From Eledone cirrhosa (taxonomy: Eukaryota): 64,000 nucleotides of DNA. The notes beneath the pieces were generated by a model that saw only the letters and a program-made list of their open reading frames with translations, ran no database searches and was not told the origin of the DNA. Below are positions 3,706 through 63,788 of this stretch, piece by piece; within the stretch, counting starts at the first letter, position 1, and each line of letters begins with the position of its first letter. The position numbers and the translations under genes are program-made. The stretch covers positions 139,748,001 through 139,812,000 of the forward strand of contig OZ024740.1 of NCBI GenBank assembly GCA_964016885.1, given 5' to 3'.

Positions 3706-3732
3706 CTTCGGCTGATTAGCGCACAAATATAG

Positions 3733-3979
3733 GATTGGAGCTCTGAAATAGTGATGTATACATGAATGTATGTATAATATATTTGGCAATATACCGTATG
3801 TTTAATTAAAAACACTTAGAAGACTATACGCTATCAGTTTTAAAGAAGTGACTATGTCACTTCTTTCGCCGAATATAAGTAAGTGACATAGTCACTACTT
3901 TAAAACTGATAGCGTATGGTCTTCTAAGTGTTTTTAATTAAACATACAGTATATTGCCAAATATATTATACATACATTC

Positions 3980-4649: not shown

Positions 4650-4765
4650 CTGGATGACAGGCAAAGTTAAGCTCGGCGGGGTTTGAACTCGGAATGAAGG
4701 TAGCTGGAATGAATACTGCAAATCCTTTTATCCAATGTACTAACGACTCGGTGAATTCTCCTATA
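4650..4765 (-). mobile_element. Degenerate Octopus-type SINE
   Basis: ggatgacaggcaaagttaagctcggcggggtttgaactc matches the reverse complement of the SINE core. Confidence 0.65.
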
Positions 4766-5903
4766 TGTTGAAATATACTGGGTAAGAAAAACATTACTTT
4801 GTTTAAAGTAGTTTAGTTAATATGAAGCATTGTGAGATATCTAATAAATGACTGATAAGTATTTCCGAAAGCCAGTACAATGCAGTAGAAATATATAAAG
4901 GGTAAAGGATGGCAAATAAAACAAAACAAAGTAGTGTTTTTCTTACCCAGTATATTTCAACATAATATTTCATGGTTAATATCCCTTTTTCAAATGCTAA
5001 GCAAATAAAAACAAACGATGTAAAACAAAACGAACGATGTGTTCTTCCTGAACTGGTCCAAGTGTCAGGATTGCGAATGCGGGGATCAGTCATAGAAGTC
5101 ACTCTGTCCAATGTAGTTCTGATCTATTGTTTATTTGTGACTTCTGAGAGTTGATGATCACAGCCTCTTTAATTCTTAAATTTCTAACATTCCTTCCCGT
5201 CAATTATATGTCTCGTTTGCAGCATTTGTTAATATGTTTTTTGACAGAATCTCTCGTTGTCATGGGCTCCTTGATACATATGTGCAACATCCGGACAGTA
5301 CTTACGATGTACAAAGAGCTACATTGTCTACGTGTGATCCTGTAAACTACATACGCTTTCATGCACATTTCTGCATTCTTGATGGGACATTTAGGAAGTG
5401 TGCATATATCATTGTATTCAGGTAGGGGGTTGTAGAGTTGTCTTCTCAAGGAAGATCTCACGTGTGTCAGCTGTATGTTCAGGCTTTCCCTACTGATGGC
5501 TTGTCGGATGGCAGCGGTTGTCTTTTCATTGAAATGCGGCAGCTTTAGATAACATATGCTATCTCGATGAACACGCGACCTCCTTGTTCTTTAAGGTGAT
5601 GCCTTAGCATTTCAGCATTTGGTGAGAGAAAGGTGGTTAGCCATTCTCGGTGAGAATTCTTTAGAATTCCTCCATGCTGGTGTATTTGTTGGTACCTTCT
5701 CTGCATTTGTTGCGTATTCAGAAGATCTCATTCTGCTTTGTTTTACATCGTGTTTCTTTTTTTTTTCTTTGCATTTAAGAAAAGGGTATTAATATACTGG
5801 GTAAGAAAAACATTTTTTTGTTTGCTTTATTTGTCATCATTTGCCCTTCATATATTTCTACCGCTTTGAATCGATTTTCTAAAATACTTCCTCGTTTTTT
5901 CTA

Positions 5904-5905: not shown

Positions 5906-6200
<295 letters not shown>

Positions 6201-6892
6201 TATTACTCCAAGATAAACTTAAAAAGGAATACAAGTGAAATCATAAACTCGCCACCTACGTAAACCCCTTGTTGAGTCAAACAACGCCGTACGCTAAAAC
6301 TATCCATAATACGAAGTATTCACAACCTCTAACTGGATTACCTATAACGATATTTTATTTTGTTATCCCTTATATATATATATATATATAATTAATTTAA
6401 TACAATAACAGAGATAGTTTAAAGCTAAACTCTGACTGGTAACCATCTCACTCAACAAACATTAGGTTATATTAAAATATAAACCCAATTTAAGTGTTTG
6501 GGGTGCTAACAATATGTATAATGTGGAAAAACCAGTTGTATTATTTTATGAGATATAATTAAAGATAAAGTATATCTCTCTTTCCAAACATTTGTTTCAT
6601 TATAAGTTTTCTACAAGTTTGGGAGAATGTTTCCAGTTTATGTAGAAGCCTAATATATAATCATGTAAGAATATATTTAGGTGGGCACTTATAAATCATC
6701 AGTGGAAGCCCATTAAACATTGATATAAGAAAACAATTTCTTACCGCTGTCAAAAATCATGTTCGTAAAGTAGCTCTCTCTCACCTCGAATGACCGCCAA
6801 ATTTGAAATTCCAGCAGTTTTTGACTGGGGAAGTATCATAGCGACACGAAGCGGGAAGGGGAGACAACCCACGATCCACGAAATGAGGAAAA

Positions 6893-11552: not shown

Positions 11553-11931
11553 TGTACGTTATTCAACTTACACCGACACAGAAAACGAACCTCACACTAA
11601 CACACATATACAAATATGGATGTCATGGTAAATTACTCATTTACTTTATAATGATGCCATCTTTGACATGGAGGTCGAGGGTGGGTGCTGGCCTCTATGG
11701 GGGACATCGCTGGTCAATCTATCTATCTGTTTGATTATTTATTGTCTGGTTTTATATCTCTCTTCATGGTATGCTTCAGTGTGTGTGTGTATATATATAT
11801 ATATGTGTGTGTGTATGTGTGTGTGTGTGTGCGTTTTTGTGTGTGTGTCTCATTCACTCTCTCACTCTCCCTTTTCCTTTCTCTTCCGTTGTTTCTTTTT
11901 CTCTCTCGCTCTCTCTCTCTTTCACACACAG

Positions 11932-12062
11932 TACAGTGAAATTCCGTTATAACGAAATTCACGGAGTATAAAATATTGGTTGTAACGAAAAATTCTTTAT
12001 AACGTGATCAACCTAACACATCGGGCGTGTGGCCGAGGATTGAAATAAATTTCGTTATACTG
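11932..12062. mobile_element. pogo/Tigger-like MITE fragment
   Basis: ta-CAGTGAAATTCCGTTATAACGAA start, repeated (at)aacg motifs and an inverted atttcgttata at ~12049-12059. Confidence 0.4.
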
Positions 12063-12665
12063 AAAAAGTTATTGGGACACGTAGAATAGAGTGAAGCGAG
12101 CGAGACATGTAAACAAACAGAGGTGGTAATGCAACGGAAAGAGAGGAAGAGGGGAAACAAGTCTGTGATATCTGTGAACTTAAGTTCGATCAAATCAGAT
12201 GCGTCCGAGCCGTGTGAGATGTAAGCGAGAAAAGGATTTCTCACAGGTCAGACGGGAGGAAGTGAGTGAGGGGGAGTAGCAGAGAGTGAGTGAGTGAAAG
12301 TGTGAGGAAAAGGCCAGCTGAGAGAGAGTGACTGGCAGAGGGGGTGAAATGAAGGTGAGAGATACAGAGAAAGAGGATAGCTGTAAGAAAGAAACAGACT
12401 GGTCACAGCGGAGGGAAAAATGTAAATGAAAATGGCGTGCTGCGTTGTTGCAAATGGGATACATATGAATAAAAGTCCGTCATCAGTGGTTGCATTACCA
12501 TCTCTGTTTGTTTACATGTCTCGCTCACTTCACCCTATTCTACGTGTCCCAATAACTTTTTTAGTTATTGCTCGCACCAGCCAGAGGTATATGATCTTTA
12601 ATGCGAAGAAATACTATCTTTATTCACATGTGTCCCATTTGCAACAACTCAGCACGCCATTTTTC

Positions 12666-12668
<3 letters not shown>
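12063..12668. repeat. Interleaved pair of inverted repeats
   Basis: 12063-12134 mirrors 12489-12562, and 12425-12472 mirrors 12617-12668. The latter sequence (tgaaaatggcgtgctgcg..) is a dispersed TA-associated family that also occurs at 53163-53283. Confidence 0.75.
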
Positions 12669-12710
<42 letters not shown>

Positions 12711-12798
12711 TAGCAGTTTAAAAACGGTGAATACTAATGTTTCAAGCTTTTTATCCATCTTCTGTGACTTTACGCACTTAGTACTGAGGCTAAGATGA

Positions 12799-12832
<34 letters not shown>

Positions 12833-13076
12833 TCATCTTAGCCTCAGTACTAAGTGCGTAAAAGTTACAGAAGATGGATAAAAAGCTTGAAATATTAGTG
12901 TTCGCCGTTTTCAAACTGCTACTGATGTGGCTGTGATATGATCACCGCTTACGGAATCATATCAAGACTTATTTATGTAAATAATAGACAAAAATATGGC
13001 AGATGATTTCATATACGCCTATAAAGTACCAGTAATGCACTAGGATAATTGCTGGCCTTGTGCCCAAAGTAGAAAC

Positions 13077-13126
<50 letters not shown>

Positions 13127-13129
<3 letters not shown>

Positions 13130-14287
13130 TCGTATAACGGAAATAAAAGACCATGTGACCTCTGCGCCGCTGAGGCCCTGGAAATACTCTACGCCACAGA
13201 CCACATCTTAAACAAAAAATCTGAGGCAATTTCGGCTTGTAAACATAAATTGCACAAAACTTTCCTCTATTACAGCCCCACATTATACCCTAACGGATAG
13301 TACGATCTATATGCGGATATTTTACGTCTTGATGTGGTAGCTAAGTTTATGTTATGTTTATACAATTACTTATTTGTATAGGTAAGTATATATTACCTCT
13401 ATGTTTTGTGAAGGTACGTATACTTTCTCGTACGTATATTTGATTGCATGTGTTATGGCGTATATTTTATATATTCTGGTACATATGCTTTTGGTTATGT
13501 GTATACGTGAGTTTTGCGTCTGTGTGAGTATGCAGGTTCGTACGTATGTAGGGTGTGTGTATATGTGTACTTCATATTTTGGTTGACGTACGTCTCCGAA
13601 CATATGTGTATTTACATGTAGGTATGTGTGTGCGCTTGTTATATACGTATTTATTTATTTATATACGTTTATTTAAGTATTTGTATACACGCACACACAT
13701 ACACACACATATATACGTGTGTGTATTTGTATACCTATGACGAGTGTTTTCGCGTATGCTTGTGTATGTACGTATATGTACGTGTATGTACGTATATAAT
13801 TTCAATTACCTCTGTATTTTATTTACTTTATTCTTAACTCTGAAGCCGAGAATCATTCTGTCTCCTAGTTAGAATTTTTGTCTACGACTTCAGTTATACC
13901 ATTTACGTGGTTTTGTCTTTGCGTACAATTGTTCTCCACGCTCCACATATGACGTATTATCTTCGTTTTTTCCGTTCATTGCCAGAGAACGTCTCTATGA
14001 ACCACCTAATAGAATATTAATCTACGACTTCTTTTATACCATAAACGTGGTTTTGTCTTTGCGTGTAATTGTTTTTCACCGCTCCAATTAATGACGTATT
14101 ATATTCGTTTTTTCCCGTTCTTTGCCAGGGAACGTTTCCACGAACCAAAGTATCGTCTTCCTGTCTTCCTCCGGTTGCAACGTTTTTTGAAATATTCACT
14201 TCTGCGTTCACAGATTGACTTTGTTAGTTTCAGAAGATCCCGTTAAGGGTGAAAGCAGCGATTCTTTGCTTAAACTTTAATCTCTTA

Positions 14288-14293
<6 letters not shown>
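13127..14293 (+). mobile_element. 5'-truncated Penelope-like element (left arm)
   Basis: 13127-13300 encodes RSYNGNKRPCDLCAAEALEILYATDHILNKKSEAISACKHKLHK...*. A ~1 kb 3' region follows, with an internal ~140-bp tandem duplication (13881-14004 / 14021-14147) and a terminal HHR motif. Flanked by (TA)n. Confidence 0.85.
14226..14276 (+). ncRNA. Type I hammerhead-like motif with variant core (CAGAAGA)
   Basis: Stem I agttt/aaact; core CAGAAGA instead of CUGANGA; stem II ccc-gttaa-ggg; GAAA; stem III gcag/ttgc; UU site. An identical mirror copy lies at 14359-14409 on -. Confidence 0.6.
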
Positions 14294-14340
<47 letters not shown>

Positions 14341-14347
<7 letters not shown>

Positions 14348-15685
14348 TAACAGATTAAAGTTTAAGCAAAGAATCGCTGCTTTCACCCTTAACGGGATCT
14401 TCTGAAACTAACAAAGTCAATCTGTAAACGCAGAACTGGATATTTCAAAAAACGTTGCAACCGGAAGAAGACAGGAAGACGATACTTTGGTTCGTGGAAA
14501 CGTTCGCTGGCTAATAACGGGGAAAAACGAATATAATACGTCATTAATAGGAGCGGTGAAAAACAATTACGCGCAAAGACAGAACCACGTTTATGGTATA
14601 AAAGAGGTCGTAGACTAATGTTCTCTTAGGTGGTGCATAGAGACGTTCTCTGGCAATGAACGAAAAAAAACGAAGATAATACGTCATATGTGGAGCGTGA
14701 AGAACAATAGCACGCAAAGACAAAACCACGTAAATGGTATAGCAGAAGTCGTAGACTAAATTCTAACTAGGAGACCGAATGAATCTCCGCTACGGAGTTA
14801 AGAATAAAGTAAATAAATACAATACAGAAGTAATAGAAATAAATAAATACATACACGCAAACAAATACGTACATACACAAGCGAAAACTTACCATAGGTA
14901 AACAAAACCACGCACATATAAATATGTGTGTGTGTGTAAGCGTGTATACAAATAAATAAATAATTATATAAACGTATATAAATAAATAAATACGTATATA
15001 ACAAGCGCACACACATACCTACATGTAAATACACGAATGTTCGGAGACGTAAGTCAACCAAAACATGAAGTACACATATACACACGCCCTACATACGTAC
15101 GAACCTGCATACTCACACAGACGCAAAACTCCCGTATACACATAGCCGAACCATATGTACCAGAATATATAAAAAAATTATACGCCATAACAATCAAATA
15201 TACGTACGAGAAGGTATACGTACCTTCACAAAACATAGAGGTAATATATACTTACCTATGCAAATAAGTAAAGGTATAAACAAAACATATACTTAGCTCC
15301 CACATCGAGACGTAAAATATCCACGTATAGATCGTACTATCCGTTAGGGTATAACATGGGGCTGTAATACAGGAAAGTTTTGTGCAATTTATGTTTACAA
15401 GCCGAAATTGCCTCAGATTTTTTGTTTAAGATGTGGTCTGTGGCGTAGAGTATTTCCAGGGCCTCAGCGGCGCAGAGGTCACATGGTCTTTTATTTCCGT
15501 TATACGATCTAGCCCTAGCTAGGATCTCCCAGTGTAACTTATATTGGGTGTGGTTGTCTTTTAGACTCCAGATATAAGCTGAAAGTGACGTCATATTCCT
15601 TCTTAGAGGGTAACGAAAAGAATGGGCATGCATGTAAAGACGCTGCTTGAATCTATTGGATTTTAGTCTTCAAATTTATTATTAT
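14341..15685 (-). mobile_element. 5'-truncated Penelope-like element (right arm)
   Basis: Inverted relative of 13127-14293, ~175 bp longer at its 5' end, flanked by (TA)n. Confidence 0.85.
15337..15651 (-). pseudogene. C-terminal part of a PLE GIY-YIG endonuclease (CxLC...CxH type)
   Basis: [32 protein letters not shown]...LHWEILARARSY...CDLCAAEALEI...LNKKSEAISACKH fits the known PLE endonuclease tail pattern FKxR..H..SFR..T.LS.YIW.LK..W.IL..Y..C.LC..E..LNK..E..C.H. Confidence 0.85.
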
Positions 15686-15762
<77 letters not shown>

Positions 15763-15786
15763 TATAATATATATATATACATATAC

Positions 15787-15869
<83 letters not shown>

Positions 15870-17269
15870 TATAATTGTTTCTAGTTTGGGCACAAGGCCA
15901 CCAATTATACTAGTGCATTACTGGTACTTTATAGGCGTATATGAAATCATCTGCCATATTTTTGTCTATTATTTACATAAATAAGTCTTGATATGATTCC
16001 GTAAGCGGTGATCATATCACAGCCACATCAGTAGCAGTTTGAAAACGGCGGACACTAATGTTTCAAGCTTTTTATCCATCTTCTGTGACTTTTACGTACT
16101 TAATACTGAGGCTAAGATGAGTTATCACTTTTTCATATTTACGTATGAAAAATCCCATGGAGCTGTAACATAAACAGTTGTTCTAAATATTTTTGAACAT
16201 TTTTAGATCATGTTGACAGCAACGGACATGTTTCGATCTTGTTTGACTTCCTCGTTAATACATATTCATTTAGTAAGTTGGCTTCACTAGTATGGTCAAT
16301 TATATAGGAAAAGTGGCTTACAAGCGAAAGAAAAAATACTTATCACACATCATGGAGGTTTGATATGTATATGAGCGGTTTGATTCGGATGTGCGATATT
16401 GACATTTCATATATGCAAAACTTATCAGATTGACTGATCGCTTCACTGCAGAGATAGTAACAGCTTCTAAATATGGCTAATTGTCATTGAATATAAGGCT
16501 CGGTTTTGTTGTCCATTTGCTGAATCGGTAGTTTAACAACTGCTGATGAATTGGAGACGATCCTTTGTCGCAGTGTCCAGAAATAATGCTTTTTCCTTTC
16601 GTTAGAAATTTCGGTTGAATTAAATTTCAGTGGAAAATTATTAACAGCCAATGACAACAGTATAACAGCTCAATTTTCTTATTAAAGGATACAGCAAGCT
16701 GCTGCAACGTGCATTTTCTCAGTGAGATAAAGATAGCAATGGTGTGATCTGAGTGAGTGAGAACGGGTTTAGACGAGAATATTGGGTAGGCCATTTCTCA
16801 GCTCCAGATCCATCAAGATTAAACTGGTGGAGTTTTGTTTGTCCCCGAACATGAAAATGTGCATATGCTAAGTAAATCTTCCCTTTATATCAATGTGTAA
16901 GTTCCATCAAATTTATCGGGATACCATCTCCTGAGATATGAGTCGCCCTATTGACTACTGCCATAGAAAAACGGAGTTCTCTCGGTGGACAGGTGAAGTT
17001 AGTCCAAAAGTTAGAAGTGGGTTTCTGGGATGTAGCGTGCATAGGTGTATATTTTCTTTTACTAGTGTAGCGTTCAGTCGTAATGGTAATTGTTGTTGGT
17101 GCGTGTTGTTGTTGTTCTTGCTGATGTTGTTATGTATCACCAATACCCAACCTTAGTCCGTCCTTATCAGGCAGAGCTATGATTAAAAAAAACATACTCG
17201 CTATGACAATTTCATCTATAATTACGTTTTTCAACGAGTTCATATTTTTATATGTAAAACTAAAATGTT

Positions 17270-19950: not shown

Positions 19951-19955
<5 letters not shown>

Positions 19956-20096
19956 AACCAGTAAGACCCCGACAGCTGAGCTCAAACAAGCTCAGCTGTC
20001 GGGGTCTTACTGGTTCCTATTACCCACTCTACTACCTCAAGTATTGAGTACTTTGGTGCGTTATGGTCCACCTGGTTCCTTACCACATTTCCTTCG

Positions 20097-20099
<3 letters not shown>
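19951..20099 (+). mobile_element. Family A element in (TA)n with fold-back at HHR stem III loop
   Basis: Arms 19951-19982 / 19989-20020 with spacer caaaca. The remainder matches the reverse complement of 287-365. Confidence 0.8.
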
Positions 20100-26547: not shown

Positions 26548-26760
26548 GTAGATGGGAATAGAGTGATGACAGAAACTGTGATTTAAGTAGGTTTATAGGC
26601 AATAAAAGTGAAGAGAGAATTGTAATAAAGCTTCATTAAGATACTCCACATAGACATGGAATTTCATCTATACCATGGTATTTTAGACTGGTCATACTGA
26701 ATATATTTCTCTTCCTCGCCTCTCTATCTCTCTCCGTCAACCACTGCTATATATATATAA

Positions 26761-27100
26761 GATAATTGTTTCTACATCTGGCACAAGGCCACCAATTATC
26801 ACAGTGTATTACTGGTACTTTATTTTATCGATCGCGTAAGGATGAAAGGCAAAGTTAACCTCGGCGGGATTAACTTTGCCTTTCATCCTTACGCGATCGA
26901 TAAAATGAAGTACCAATAATACACTAGGATAATTGCTAGCCTTGTATATATATATATAAGATAATTGTTTCTACTTTTGGCACAAGGCCAGCAATTACCC
27001 AGTGTATTACTGGTACTTTATTTTATCGACCCCGTAAGGATGAAAGGCAAAGTTAACCTTGGCGGGATTTGAACTCAGAATGGCAAGGCCCGTAACTCTA
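26761..27100 (-). mobile_element. Young SINE: fold-back copy (26761-26945) plus adjacent longer copy (26960-27100), each preceded by (TA)n-aag
   Basis: Arms 26783-26858 / 26870-26945. Both - strand copies begin tatatataagataattgtttctac. Confidence 0.88.
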
Positions 27101-27111
27101 TGCGTCAAAGC

Positions 27112-27488
27112 ATAATGGTTTCTAATTTTGGCAGGAGGCCAGTATTTTTTTGTAGAAGGAAATTCGATTATATCGATACCAGTACATGACTGTAACTTTA
27201 TTTTATCGACTTCGGAACTTTGAAGAACCAAGTGTTGACCTCGGTGGGATTTGAACTCAAAAAGTAAACAGCCTGAACAAATACTGCTAAACATTTGTCG
27301 ATATTCTAACAACTCTATGGATATTTCTGTAGTGGCGTGGCTTTCTGGATTTGACAAGCCTTTTACGTTCTGAGTTCAACTCCCGCCGAAGTTAACTTTG
27401 CTTTTCATCCTTACGGGGTCGATAAAATAAAGTACCAGTAATGCACTGGACTAATTGCTGGCCTTGTGCCAAAGGTAGAAACAATTAT
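27112..27488. mobile_element. Older SINE (-, ~27112-27320) and young SINE (+, 27364-27488)
   Basis: Matches to the SINE core in opposite orientations. Confidence 0.8.
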
Positions 27489-53162: not shown

Positions 53163-53166
<4 letters not shown>

Positions 53167-53283
53167 TGAAAAATGGCGTGCTGCGCTGTTGCGAATGTGA
53201 TACATGTGAAGTAAAAAGTAGAGCAAGAAACCAGGACTATCCGTCATCAGTGATCTTCTGGCTATCATCGGTTTTTCTTCGCA
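53163..53283. mobile_element. Short element between (TA)n tracts (same family as 12425-12488 / 12600-12668)
   Basis: Shares tgaaaaatggcgtgctgcg.tgttgc.aatg.gataca and tccgtcatcagtg. Confidence 0.7.
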
Positions 53284-53889: not shown

Positions 53890-54617
53890 AAATTGAAAAA
53901 TTGAAGAATAACATGGTCAACAGTACAAACAAGGAAATTTATTTACAGTCTAACAATCGTTTCTATGATAGAGTTGTCTAAAAATTGCTAAACACTGACG
54001 GCAGTGCCACTCAATTTAATATACATGTTATCTCTATCATTTCGTCAGAGACTGAGAGAAAATAAAAAAATTTATGCGTAACGGTAAATTTACAAATTCA
54101 AATTACCACATAGTAATACTAATAATAAAGATATAGAGAGAAACAAAGGAAGGAGGACGGATGGAAAGGAGGGGGGGGGGGCGAAAGAGAGAAAGAAAAT
54201 ACAAATAAATACGTAACCGGCAAAATTACGAGTTCAAACTATCACATCAAAATAGTATTAATAATAAAGATACAGATAGAAAGAAAAGAGGGGGGGATAG
54301 ATGTAGTAAAGGTAGAGAAGAGAAAGAAAGATGAAGGAAAAAGAGAAAAGAAAAACAGGTATAGAAGGAAGAAGACCGGGAAGTTATTACAGCTAAAAAT
54401 ACGCAGGCATGGACATCATATGAAAGATAGAAGAGTTAAGACGTGCGACCGGATGAGTGATTGTTGATAAATAAATGTCCATGCCTATGTAATTTTAACT
54501 GTAATAACTTCCCTTCTATACCTGTCTTTTCTCTTTTTCCTTCTTCATCTTTCTCTGTCTCTTTCTCTTTTTCCTTCTTCATCTTTCTTTCTCTTCTCTA
54601 CCTTTACTACATCTAGA
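53890..54617 (-). mobile_element. Family C PLE-type 3' end with intact HHR and fold-back at its 5' end
   Basis: Tail shared with 6043-6200; HHR at 53946-54054; internal duplication ~54075-54140 / 54210-54280; inverted repeat 54298-54416 / 54476-54615. Confidence 0.75.
53946..54054 (-). ncRNA. Type I hammerhead ribozyme motif
   Basis: On -: stem I cagtct/agactg (6 bp perfect); CTGACGA; stem II atgatagag/ctctatcat with a large loop; GAAA; minimal stem III cgattg; GUU cleavage triplet. Confidence 0.8.
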
Positions 54618-57235: not shown

Positions 57236-57423
57236 GGTACGTTATTCCGGGTTGAATCGGAGGTAACCACAGTAAGTAAGGTACTCAATACATAGCAGAG
57301 TATAAAAGTTTTAATATAGATGAGATTCTACAGGACTAGAACTGTTTCATTCTTTAGAAATCATCAGGAATTCCTGATGATTTCTAAAGAATGAAACAGT
57401 TCTAGTCCTGTAGAATGTGATCT
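57236..57423 (-). mobile_element. TA-embedded element (family D) with head-to-head hammerhead cores in a perfect 92-bp palindrome
   Basis: 57325-57416 is a perfect palindrome centred on gaattc. Each strand reads CTGATGA-tttctaaagaat-GAAA-cagttctag-TC. The tail shares gtactcaatac with family A. Confidence 0.75.
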
Positions 57424-57834
57424 ATATATATATATATATTTATATAAGTATGTATACGTACATACATATATGTATACAGACGTACAGTAGTATGTATATA
57501 CATACATACATGCACACATATATATATGTACGTATTGGTTTACCGAACATTTATTATAATGTTCGGTTTGTTTGTAAACGAACAGCCCGAATGAAGCCGT
57601 ACAGTGTTCGGCAACCATCGTTGCCCTTTTGTTCAACACTGACAAAGGAACGATGAACTAGTTTCTAGCTTCTTAGCTGTCATCTGCACCGTATACCTTC
57701 CTGTCAATCGATTGAATGTTTGAAAGTATATACTTTCCTTATGCATATTAACGGGATAAGTTATCCCTGGATAACTTGAACCGTTAAGGTATATTATCCT
57801 TGGTTATGTCAAAATTTATAAAACACACTTCGTA

Positions 57835-57892
57835 TTTTATCTGATGATAGAGTACCAAACTTTTTGGTACCCTTGAAATATATATAATAGAA
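57835..57892 (+). ncRNA. Type I minimal hammerhead ribozyme motif
   Basis: Stem I ttttat/atagaa; CTGATGA (57841-57847); stem II gtaccaaa-ctt-tttggtac; GAAA (57875-57878); palindromic stem III tatata; AUA cleavage triplet. An AT-rich tail and TA follow. Confidence 0.7.
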
Positions 57893-57953
57893 CAAATATG
57901 ATTTTATAAATATAGTTTCTATTTATTTAATATCATTATATATAAAATTGAAA

Positions 57954-58208
57954 ATTAGAATAGGTGCTCTGAAATAGCGATGTATATATGAATGTATACA
58001 TAGTGCATTTGGTAATACACTGTATGCTTAATTAAAAGCATTGTGAAGACATTACACTATTGTTTTAAAGTAGTGACTATGTCACTTACTTCTCAAAAAC
58101 AATAGTGTAAGGTCTTCAAAATGCTTTTAATTAAGCATACAGTGTATTACCAAATGCACTATGTATACATTCATATATACATCGCTATTTCAGAGCACCA
58201 ATTCTAAT
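57954..58208. mobile_element. Family B fold-back element, second copy
   Basis: Arms ~57954-58065 / 58095-58208. The spacer contains agtgactatgtcact (HHR stem III). Homologous to 3733-3981. Confidence 0.78.
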
Positions 58209-62651: not shown

Positions 62652-62744
62652 AAACATATATGTGTATATATATATATACATATACATATATGAAAAGATT
62701 CAGGACCCCGACGGCTGAGCTACAGCCGTTTCGACAGCTACATA

Positions 62745-63626: not shown

Positions 63627-63628
<2 letters not shown>

Positions 63629-63785
63629 AGCTCAAGCCGTTTCGACGGCTATTAGAAATAGCCGTTGAAACGGCTTGAGCTCTGCGGTCGGGTTTAAACA
63701 TTTTCCTATTACCCACTCTACTACCCTAAGTATTGAATACTCTGGTGCGTTATGGTCCATCTGGTTCCTTACCACAACTCCTTCG

Positions 63786-63788
<3 letters not shown>
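63627..63788 (+). mobile_element. Family A element in (TA)n with fold-back at HHR stem II
   Basis: Palindrome 63627-63683 centred at 63655. The tail is homologous to the reverse complement of 287-365. Confidence 0.8.

Follow-up and report, generated by a model that had tools for sequence, protein, structure and literature searches.

The window analysed here, a 64,000-nucleotide stretch of Eledone cirrhosa contig OZ024740.1, contains a 3.3-kb palindrome (12830–16123) in which two copies of the 3′ end of a Penelope-like element (PLE) face each other, accompanied by an inverted copy of adjacent non-PLE flank. Including the left boundary, its parts follow the order (TA) A (TA) A′B′ (TA) P> (TA) <P (TA) B A, where P is the PLE and A and B are segments of the flank. 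We see about an even chance that the structure arose when a broken TA tract was repaired once by fold-back (self-priming) and the arms were later homogenised in patches. The palindrome is a big instance of something common in this window, not a new system.

Layout of the palindrome and identity of the P element

The left boundary is a pure (TA)n tract, TA1 (12669–12707; like the other tracts, without strand assignment), which shares AT microhomology of 2 nt with A. A third copy of A follows (12708–12799, plus strand), a direct copy of 16029–16121 with six substitutions and one indel, and then TA2 (12800–12829), a (TA)15 on which the A/A′ hairpin is centred; the source is without TA2 and has a mini-hairpin with a 3-bp stem, AGT-TATC-ACT, at the corresponding point. 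A′B′ (12830–13079, minus strand) is an inverted copy of the right flank 15874–16123, with eight substitutions plus a junction base and no indels, and includes a 5′-truncated SINE 3′ end (13021–13079, plus strand) whose last letters are TA. The pure (TA)24 of TA3 (13080–13127) shares 2-nt microhomology with an internal TA dinucleotide of P, and 179 bp are skipped there.

The left PLE arm, P(+) (13128–14292, plus strand), comprises the final 173 bp of an ORF (to 13300) and a 3′ UTR of ∼990 bp, which contains a low-complexity block, a 140-bp tandem repeat (13870–14147) and a putative Hydra-type hammerhead motif (14226–14276, plus strand; stems I, II, and III of 5, 3, and 5 bp). TA4 (14293–14342), a pure (TA)25 flanked by both PLE 3′ ends, is the centre of the palindrome. 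The right arm, P(−) (14343–15688, minus strand), is 5′-truncated near the YIG motif, holds 179 bp (15510–15688) more than the left arm, and encodes the putative C-terminus of a Hydra-clade GIY-YIG endonuclease, open for 110 codons (15337–15669, minus strand). TA5 (15689–15873), 185 bp long, is a (TA)n with interruptions that lies at the SINE tail. The source flank BA (15874–16123, plus strand) runs unbroken into the sequence on the right; B spans 15874–16028, with the SINE tail on the minus strand at 15874–15932, and A (16029–16121) continues into the right flank. The initial annotation had described this layout, and its coordinates hold: a (TA)n tract lies at each of the five junctions, the roughly 250 bp of duplicated flank is A′B′, and the ∼175 bp it found lacking from the left PLE is the 179-bp segment. 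The SINE tail it placed in B is a 59-bp SINE 3′ end matching six other places in the window at 88–95%. When the masked window was searched, there was no other match to A, to the non-SINE part of B, or to the right flank at 16124–17100; the window thus gives no sign that AB is a regular part of the PLE.

Judged from its sequence, P is the 5′-truncated 3′ end of a Hydra-clade PLE, and the annotated tail-to-tail orientation is right, with the 3′ ends facing each other across TA4. Residues C63, C66, E69, N82, C91, and H93 of the endonuclease C-terminus (CxxC..E..N..CxH) are invariant in all eight aligned sequences, matching the CxxC and CxH around conserved E and N in Hydra-clade PLEs, Hydra-1_Obim included (PMC8557442). 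Hydra-clade PLEs insert into (TA)n (Craig et al., 2021, PMC8557442), and TA tracts abut both ends of both arms here; 5′ truncation is also shared, and a candidate hammerhead of the ctgaagat..tgaa type lies near the 3′ end. An exhaustive search with the endonuclease fragment gave 3236 relatives at E ≤ 0.001. Pfam matched GIY-YIG in two of nine scanned relatives (one over the curated cut-off), a 696-aa relative has RT motifs upstream, and relative P0143 carries RW, DKT, and a CNC..C linker; P itself has lost to 5′ truncation the region in which the clade is marked by RWK and DKT motifs, a CxCX5C linker, and no CCHH. Pfam matched neither the endonuclease fragment, which covers the post-YIG half only, nor a second PLE-like ORF (0/2), and none of 16 candidates scored in a word-indexed search for longer relatives.

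Compared by eye, the hammerhead has an architecture like those in File S2 of PMC8557442, but core U4 is A in both arms, unlike in the Hydra-clade PLEs of that study. Rfam at gathering score gave no match in the whole window, hammerhead included, and the ribozyme fold is not the minimum-energy fold of a 75-nt hammerhead fragment (z about 0.7). The 72 sub-threshold Rfam matches in 11900–16500, mostly microRNA models on TA-centred hairpins, were judged to be chance. P differs from Hydra-1_Obim, by eye a different family, in the C-terminus, the hammerhead stems, and UTR length (about 990 vs. about 200 bp). The window holds only two copies of P's family. No Pfam match, and no host gene, was found among 76 of its 138 ORFs (low-repeat, ≥55 aa).

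Divergence between the arms

Across their whole length the arms differ at 78 of 1395 columns. The flank arms had seemed closer to each other than the PLE arms; they have no indels against 12 in the PLE arms, but the contrast in substitutions (8/248 vs. 70/1146 sites) is not significant (Fisher p = 0.092, or p = 0.19 with the low-complexity block left out). Divergence instead varies as a mosaic along the arms: A and the UTR stand at about 6%, B′ and the ORF end at about 1%. A is 5.4–6.5% diverged in a three-way comparison and the UTR minus the low-complexity block differs at 48/782 sites, against 3/155 in B and 3/173 in the ORF end (ORF end vs. UTR, p = 0.015). Per branch, A equals the PLE UTR (8/276 vs. 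48/1564, p = 1.0) and is more diverged than B plus ORF (8/276 vs. 6/656, p = 0.035). Uniform divergence was rejected by permutation, with three substitutions in a 316-column stretch whose size was picked after the data were seen (p = 1.5e-4; p = 9e-4 minus the low-complexity block). The partition {A,UTR} vs. {B,ORF}, chosen post hoc, was the best of four (lnL 147.0 vs. 144.8, 142.2, and 141.6). A 139-bp run identical between the arms coincides with the conserved endonuclease core.

Arm differences are also asymmetric: left A/T vs. right G/C occurs 31:15 (p = 0.026), and left A vs. right T 16:3 (p = 0.004). This AT-ward excess suggested that the left arm is simply older, which polarisation against internal repeats does not bear out, assigning 10 changes to the right and 5 to the left (not significant, p = 0.30; three calls in misaligned columns dropped and four unpolarised left out). 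All three B differences are right-derived; at the three arm-to-arm differences in the SINE, the B′ copy has the base that predominates among the other SINE copies in the window. The three A copies are mutually distinct, differing by transitions only except for one junction base and one indel, and CpG decay is visible at 10 of 58 sites. Mutation spectrum did not discriminate between models (transition/transversion 26/51 vs. 22/37 in control fold-backs plus flank, p = 0.52).

Proposed fold-back at a TA tract and its alternatives

Fold-backs anchored at TA are routine in the window, a point the initial annotation overlooked: eight of nine other tight fold-backs end ≤20 bp from a TA tract, against a baseline of 5.5% of unmasked positions within 25 bp of one. 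Where the fold-back involves a short element that targets TA, some of this closeness is to be expected. Two of these fold-backs are compound patchworks punctuated by TA and resemble A(TA)A′ (6043–6196, and a SINE at 26762–26944). Across 13 joins of copied sequence to TA, picked by hand, microhomology averages 2.08 nt vs. 0.91 by chance (p = 0.002; p = 0.014 for a subset of 10 more independent joins); the junction at 57954–58208 was left out, its source end being unanchorable. At the palindrome's secondary joins, microhomology is 2 nt for TA1/A, 2 nt for TA3/P, and 1 and 0 for TA2. Both inversion junctions have self-complementary sequence, TA4 at the centre and, in the source, the 3-bp-stem mini-hairpin at A/A′. 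The window has 49 TA clusters. Several PLE remnants are gathered at TA tracts at 57236–58208, and three copies of another family stop at an identical base before TA.

The favoured fold-back model would start from a locus L (TA) <P (TA5) B A R, with a 5′-truncated Hydra PLE already in the TA tail of the SINE remnant. The TA tract at P's 3′ end may have been cut by a TA-targeting PLE endonuclease or by TA-cruciform cleavage. Its right-hand (TA)n 3′ end would then have folded on itself and copied its own strand through P, which is the geometry observed. The copy jumps from the TA internal to P to TA5, dropping 179 bp, presumably during this same synthesis, which would have proceeded through B and A. 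Meanwhile the left (TA)n end may have annealed to A via AT microhomology and copied it, the A copy meeting the fold-back strand at the natural 3-bp mini-hairpin; a TA tract without source counterpart lies in the loop of that mini-hairpin and would have been laid down at this step. Some ∼300 bp around TA3/TA5 would later have been homogenised arm to arm. The polymerase may have belonged to host repair or have been the reverse transcriptase of the PLE, and the product would be an inert, decaying palindrome, yielding long dsRNA only if read through.

We favour fold-back because the palindrome is centred on a TA tract that is self-complementary and lies just where the source element has its 3′ end, one arm passes without a break into the right flank, the joins show TA/AT microhomology, and eight of the nine other tight fold-backs end near TA, two being similar patchworks. 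A single event is favoured because A and the UTR share their per-branch divergence and no partition fits better than {A,UTR} vs. {B,ORF}. The steps have precedents in fold-back at breaks (PMC10622511), in MMEJ repair of TA-repeat cruciform breaks (PMC13645644), and in the tail-to-tail PLE repeats predicted from 3′-end self-priming (PMC3846280). Against this, uniform divergence is rejected, so the model needs an extra, unobserved conversion step; the asymmetric differences count against it, since copies of the same age should differ symmetrically, as does the identical run in the endonuclease core, since selection in separate lineages would give the same result. TA2 requires an extra jump, and the arms of the other fold-backs are far shorter (27–113 bp vs. 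1.46 kb here), which weakens the case. Of the two models put forward in the initial annotation, DNA-level fold-back at TA fits better and read-through transduction less well; a third was missed.

That third model, which we consider rather unlikely, has two separate insertions of the same Hydra family plus snap-back copying at a 5′ junction. The left P would enter L(TA)BA, the cDNA end looping back to copy the attached flank strand and giving A(TA)A′B′, and the right P would land separately, in opposite orientation, in the adjoining TA tract. The differing 5′ truncation points would then need no deletion, and the model predicts in advance an ORF end less diverged than the UTR, as found (3/173 vs. 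48/782). The 12 indels between PLE arms, vs. 1 among flank copies, and the asymmetric substitutions also fit, as do the PLE remnants gathered at 57236–58208. Snap-back onto nearby target DNA is described for R2 and locally templated genomic insertion for L1 (PMC11371274; PMC11702581). However, of the 49 TA clusters in the window, a single one must have received both of the only two family copies, oppositely oriented; divergence in A exceeds that in B plus ORF despite an expected equal age (p = 0.035), and the fit is 2.3 lnL units below the conversion partition. Also against the model, the transition/transversion ratio does not differ from that of control fold-backs plus flank (p = 0.52), and the polarised changes (10 right vs. 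5 left) are not significant (p = 0.30).

Read-through transduction we think improbable. A transcript A′B′(TA)P starting in the right flank would be reverse-transcribed by PLE protein and inserted inverted at the source's own 3′ TA tract, with twin-priming yielding A(TA)A′. It produces the same final layout, and priming a second time from the left end would account for the loop base kept at TA2. Reinsertion must fall exactly at the source site, however, and a flank promoter has to be postulated; the 179-bp skip and later conversion are required just as under fold-back. The left arm is not more derived (5 left vs. 10 right changes, and right-derived differences throughout B), and no editing trace appears in the left PLE arm (0/70 left-G/right-A), although none is required. 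The copy adjoins its source, and a target-site duplication is unreadable inside (TA)n.

TA tracts and palindromes are hard to sequence. An artefact of fold-back chimeric reads or haplotypes joined at TA tracts is nonetheless very improbable, even with the assembly problems noted at such PLE structures (PMC8557442), given arms that differ at 78 columns, three distinct A copies, visible CpG decay, and the three copies of another family that stop at the identical base before TA.

Known systems and wider meaning

The canonical inverted PLE copy is 5′-truncated, at the 5′ end, and head-to-head (PMC8557442), whereas the copy here is tail-to-tail and includes flank. The PLE palindromes of Adineta vaga likewise have inverted repeats, palindromic junctions, and captured host DNA, and the same study expects tail-to-tail repeats where a 3′ end primes itself on a sense template (Arkhipova et al., 2013, PMC3846280). 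In that species the captured DNA is part of mobile units, many of them flanked by target-site duplications, whereas here the copied flank sits beside the sequence it came from and all joins are TA tracts. At R2 snap-back 5′ junctions (PMC11371274), and at L1 sites with locally templated insertions and inverted duplications (PMC11702581), synthesis is likewise primed by a DNA 3′ end, templated by that end's own strand or by flank close by, and then joined through microhomology. Those cases come from cultured human cells and non-LTR elements, with no TA anchoring; the present case is fixed in an animal genome, with a 1.46-kb arm. Among host processes, the likeness is to fold-back inversion at double-strand breaks, where a self-complementary end primes an inverted duplication (PMC10622511), and to TA-repeat cruciform breaks repaired by MMEJ, in which TA repeats are both break sites and microhomology source (PMC13645644). 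In yeast, fold-back leads to a dicentric chromosome, whereas here the copying went no further than about 1.5 kb and the new strand was connected locally to the opposite end. Literature searches returned nothing on PLEs combining transduction, inversion, and template switch, or on octopus-genome palindromes with microsatellites.

The locus looks non-functional. Of 1165 left-arm nucleotides, 1093 pair with the right arm, and a long hairpin is predicted if the region is transcribed; the role as ADAR or small-RNA substrate raised in the initial annotation is speculative. The locus matters because it is the largest specimen of the window's process and because it warns of pitfalls in annotating and assembling repeats. 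We give only a small chance to a broader reading, in which a Hydra-type PLE enzyme of this TA-rich genome, related to telomerase, cuts (TA)n, self-primes the broken ends on the flank, and lays new (TA)n at the joins. How PLEs build tandem and inverted structures and prefer microsatellites is an open question in PMC8557442. Three junction clues could be counted genome-wide: tail-to-tail copying with flank included, a TA tract without template counterpart, and the rule, general across the window, that microhomology joins the ends of fold-back arms to TA. Such counts would distinguish synthesis driven by PLEs from host repair at fragile TA tracts. If the PLE-enzyme reading is true, the enzyme would produce both TA microsatellites and perfect hairpins throughout the genome, hairpins of non-element DNA included, and in a coleoid cephalopod host it would continually supply long dsRNA to the animal's extensive A-to-I editing.

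Layout of the palindrome and identity of its element

The layout claimed in the initial annotation was borne out by global alignments and by comparing the repeat-masked window with itself. The palindrome spans 12830–16123 (3.29 kb) and is built around P, the 5'-truncated 3' end of a Penelope-like element (PLE). From left to right, a (TA)n tract (TA1, 12669–12707) is followed by a left copy of flank segment A (12708–12799), TA2 (12800–12829), the inverted flank copy A'B' (12830–13079), TA3 (13080–13127), the left, plus-strand arm of P (13128–14292), TA4 (14293–14342), the right, minus-strand arm (14343–15688), TA5 (15689–15873), and flank segments B and A (15874–16121). The stretch of ~175 bp described as missing from the left arm corresponds to the 179 bp at 15510–15688. 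A 59-bp SINE 3' end within B is common to six other places in the window, and A, the non-SINE part of B, the extra 179 bp and the right flank (16124–17100) had no other match in the masked window. We conclude that the palindrome is real and correctly described; its ingredients are ordinary, its size and orientation unusual.

The right arm carries a 110-codon open frame (15337–15669, minus strand). Over the first ~28 bases of the right PLE (15660–15688), the sequence around the expected YIG codons is degenerate, and the 110 codons that follow are open. An exhaustive search recovered 3236 relatives at E ≤ 0.001 (best 2e-26); GIY-YIG was matched by two of nine scanned relatives, one exceeding the curated cut-off, and a 696-aa relative contains RW, DKT, and RT motifs plus a CNC..C linker. 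CxxC, E, N, and CxH are invariant in an eight-sequence alignment, which is the signature by which the available sections of PMC8557442 characterise the Hydra clade of PLEs; (TA)n is almost always that clade's insertion target. Both P arms contain a hammerhead-shaped motif, ending 16 nt short of the 3' TA junction, that agrees by eye with the Hydra table in the same sections; its U4 is A, it was not called by Rfam, and it is not the minimum-energy fold. Identity with the published Hydra-1_Obim family was rejected by by-eye comparison. In behaviour, the element is a Hydra PLE. The appearance of the SINE, together with the density of TA, suggests an octopus-like cephalopod as host.

Divergence between the arms and origin of the palindrome

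Between the PLE arms there are differences at 70 of 1146 sites and 12 indels; between the flank arms, there are differences at 8 of 248 sites and no indels (Fisher p = 0.092). The initial impression of flank arms closer to each other than the PLE arms is therefore not established. The divergence pattern is a mosaic. The three copies of A are 5.4–6.5% mutually diverged, while differences number 3/155 between B arms, 3/173 at the ORF end of P, 48/782 in the P UTR without its low-complexity block, and 19/191 within that block. Poisson fits gave lnL values of 141.6 (uniform), 142.2 (flank vs. PLE), 144.8 ({A,B,ORF} vs. UTR), and 147.0 ({A,UTR} vs. {B,ORF}). A 316-column stretch that takes in B', TA3, and the beginning of P, its size picked post hoc, contains three substitutions (permutation p = 1.5e-4, or 9e-4 once the low-complexity block is removed). 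Each of the three B differences is a transversion with the derived state in the right copy, and they cluster in 26 bp of the SINE tail (13044–13069 vs. 15884–15909) next to the TA tract.

Left-A/T vs. right-G/C differences number 31:15 (p = 0.026) and left-A vs. right-T 16:3 (p = 0.004), asymmetries that count against a single same-age duplication. The transition ratio did not differ between the P arms and control fold-backs plus flank (p = 0.52). Among changes that could be polarised in the internal repeats, 10 fell on the right and 5 on the left, no significant bias (p = 0.30), leaving out three calls from misaligned columns and four unpolarised. The left PLE arm bears no trace of editing (0/70 left-G/right-A). 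If the region is transcribed, 1093 of 1165 left-arm nucleotides would pair with the right arm, the longest unbroken helix being 139 bp.

The joins of TA1 to A and of TA3 to P each have a 2-nt AT or TA match with the source. Nothing in the source corresponds to TA2: a mini-hairpin with a 3-bp stem lies at that point, and its last loop base is kept on the top strand. At least one TA tract was therefore added at a point where the template lacks one.

This geometry and these microhomologies can be read directly from the sequence. The best model, which we hold at about even confidence, is fold-back copying after breakage of the TA tract that adjoins a resident P at its 3' end; we infer the break, the enzyme, and the conversion. 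After the break, the (TA)n 3' end would fold onto itself and copy P, and copying would skip 179 bp via TA microhomology before proceeding through B and A. The left end would copy A, with the join made at the mini-hairpin, and later conversion would homogenise ~300 bp. Two insertions of P, with flank copied at the 5' junction of the left one, would agree with an ORF less diverged than the UTR and with the asymmetric arm substitutions, but require coincidence, and A looks older than B plus ORF (p = 0.035); both models fit the window, and we consider this one the less likely. Read-through transduction with reinsertion at its own source, raised initially beside DNA-level fold-back at TA, appears improbable, and an artefactual palindrome highly improbable.

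The available sections of PMC10622511 describe fold-back priming where DNA breaks, and those of PMC13645644 describe MMEJ at broken TA cruciforms; together they supply a DNA-level route for fold-back copying. Comparable excerpts already describe inverted PLE structures and TA targeting (PMC8557442), discuss the capture of host DNA and the tail-to-tail products arising from 3' self-priming (PMC3846280), and document snap-back onto nearby DNA for R2 (PMC11371274) and local templated insertions for L1 (PMC11702581). The canonical inverted PLE form is head-to-head, whereas the arrangement here differs. The structure of this palindrome is not described in the available portions of PMC13282606 or PMC4209133, and our literature search, with most subscription journals and Repbase outside its scope, returned no direct precedent.

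Fold-backs and TA tracts across the window

A scan for tight fold-backs (arm ≥20 bp, spacer ≤60) returned 17 rows, corresponding to nine sites outside the palindrome. Eight of the nine have their ends no more than 20 bp from a TA cluster; among unmasked positions, 5.5% lie within 25 bp of one (binomial 2e-7, taking 0.11 per site). For short TA-targeting elements, part of this proximity is inherent. Their arms measure 27–113 bp, making the palindrome the largest case by more than tenfold.

Two sites are TA-punctuated compound patchworks resembling A(TA)A' (6043–6196 and a SINE at 26762–26944). The region 6043–6370 holds two inverted pieces of adjoining sequence, each TA-bounded, with related sequence at 53894–53932. 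At 26750–27113, a SINE 3' part with a fold-back arm lies between TA tracts and adjoins a longer SINE copy with two variants in common; this is either a PLE-free local duplication or a mobilised SINE bearing PLE-like ends.

By eye, two small families resemble hammerhead 3' halves whose tails end in TA. A short family has three TA-flanked copies (288–482, 19954–20097, and 63627–63786) and a fragment (62704–62740); the copies have an identical last base before TA, each is truncated in the apparent hammerhead 3' half with a fold-back arm of 27–57 bp, and two of the arms stop at the same internal TA. At one fold-back site (57319–57422), the folded-back sequence is a whole Hydra-type hammerhead. It lies in a cluster of PLE-like remnants (57236–58208) with a second hammerhead (57841–57892), a third, weaker motif (57686–57650), and a 113-bp-arm fold-back related to 3725–3960. 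Another PLE-like fragment (4764–5900, minus strand), which by eye looks Neptune/Nematis-like, has a cysteine linker and a degenerate GIY-YIG, no Pfam match, and its 3' part repeated inverted at its 5' end.

The left flank (11930–12668) is presumably the end of a pogo/Tigger-like DNA transposon, judging by its terminal motif, and is related to a TA-flanked piece at 53164–53282. Its inverted pieces (12059–12135 vs. 12489–12565 and 12425–12473 vs. 12619–12663; ~5–10% divergence) may stem from the same break event as the palindrome or a separate one. A 21.8-kb satellite array (28234–50060; 29-bp unit, 753 copies, 95% matches) has recurring variant blocks that suggest higher-order structure. Pfam matched none of the 76 ORFs searched among 138 low-repeat ORFs, giving no sign of a host gene.

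At 13 hand-picked copy-to-TA joins in the window (one further join was dropped as unanchorable), microhomology averaged 2.08 nt vs. 0.91 at random breakpoints (p = 0.002; p = 0.014 for 10 more independent joins). The boldest reading, in which the PLE enzyme makes TA tracts and hairpins, seems distinctly improbable. More useful as leads are a rule seen across the window, by which fold-back arms terminate in TA through microhomology, and the single TA tract without a template.
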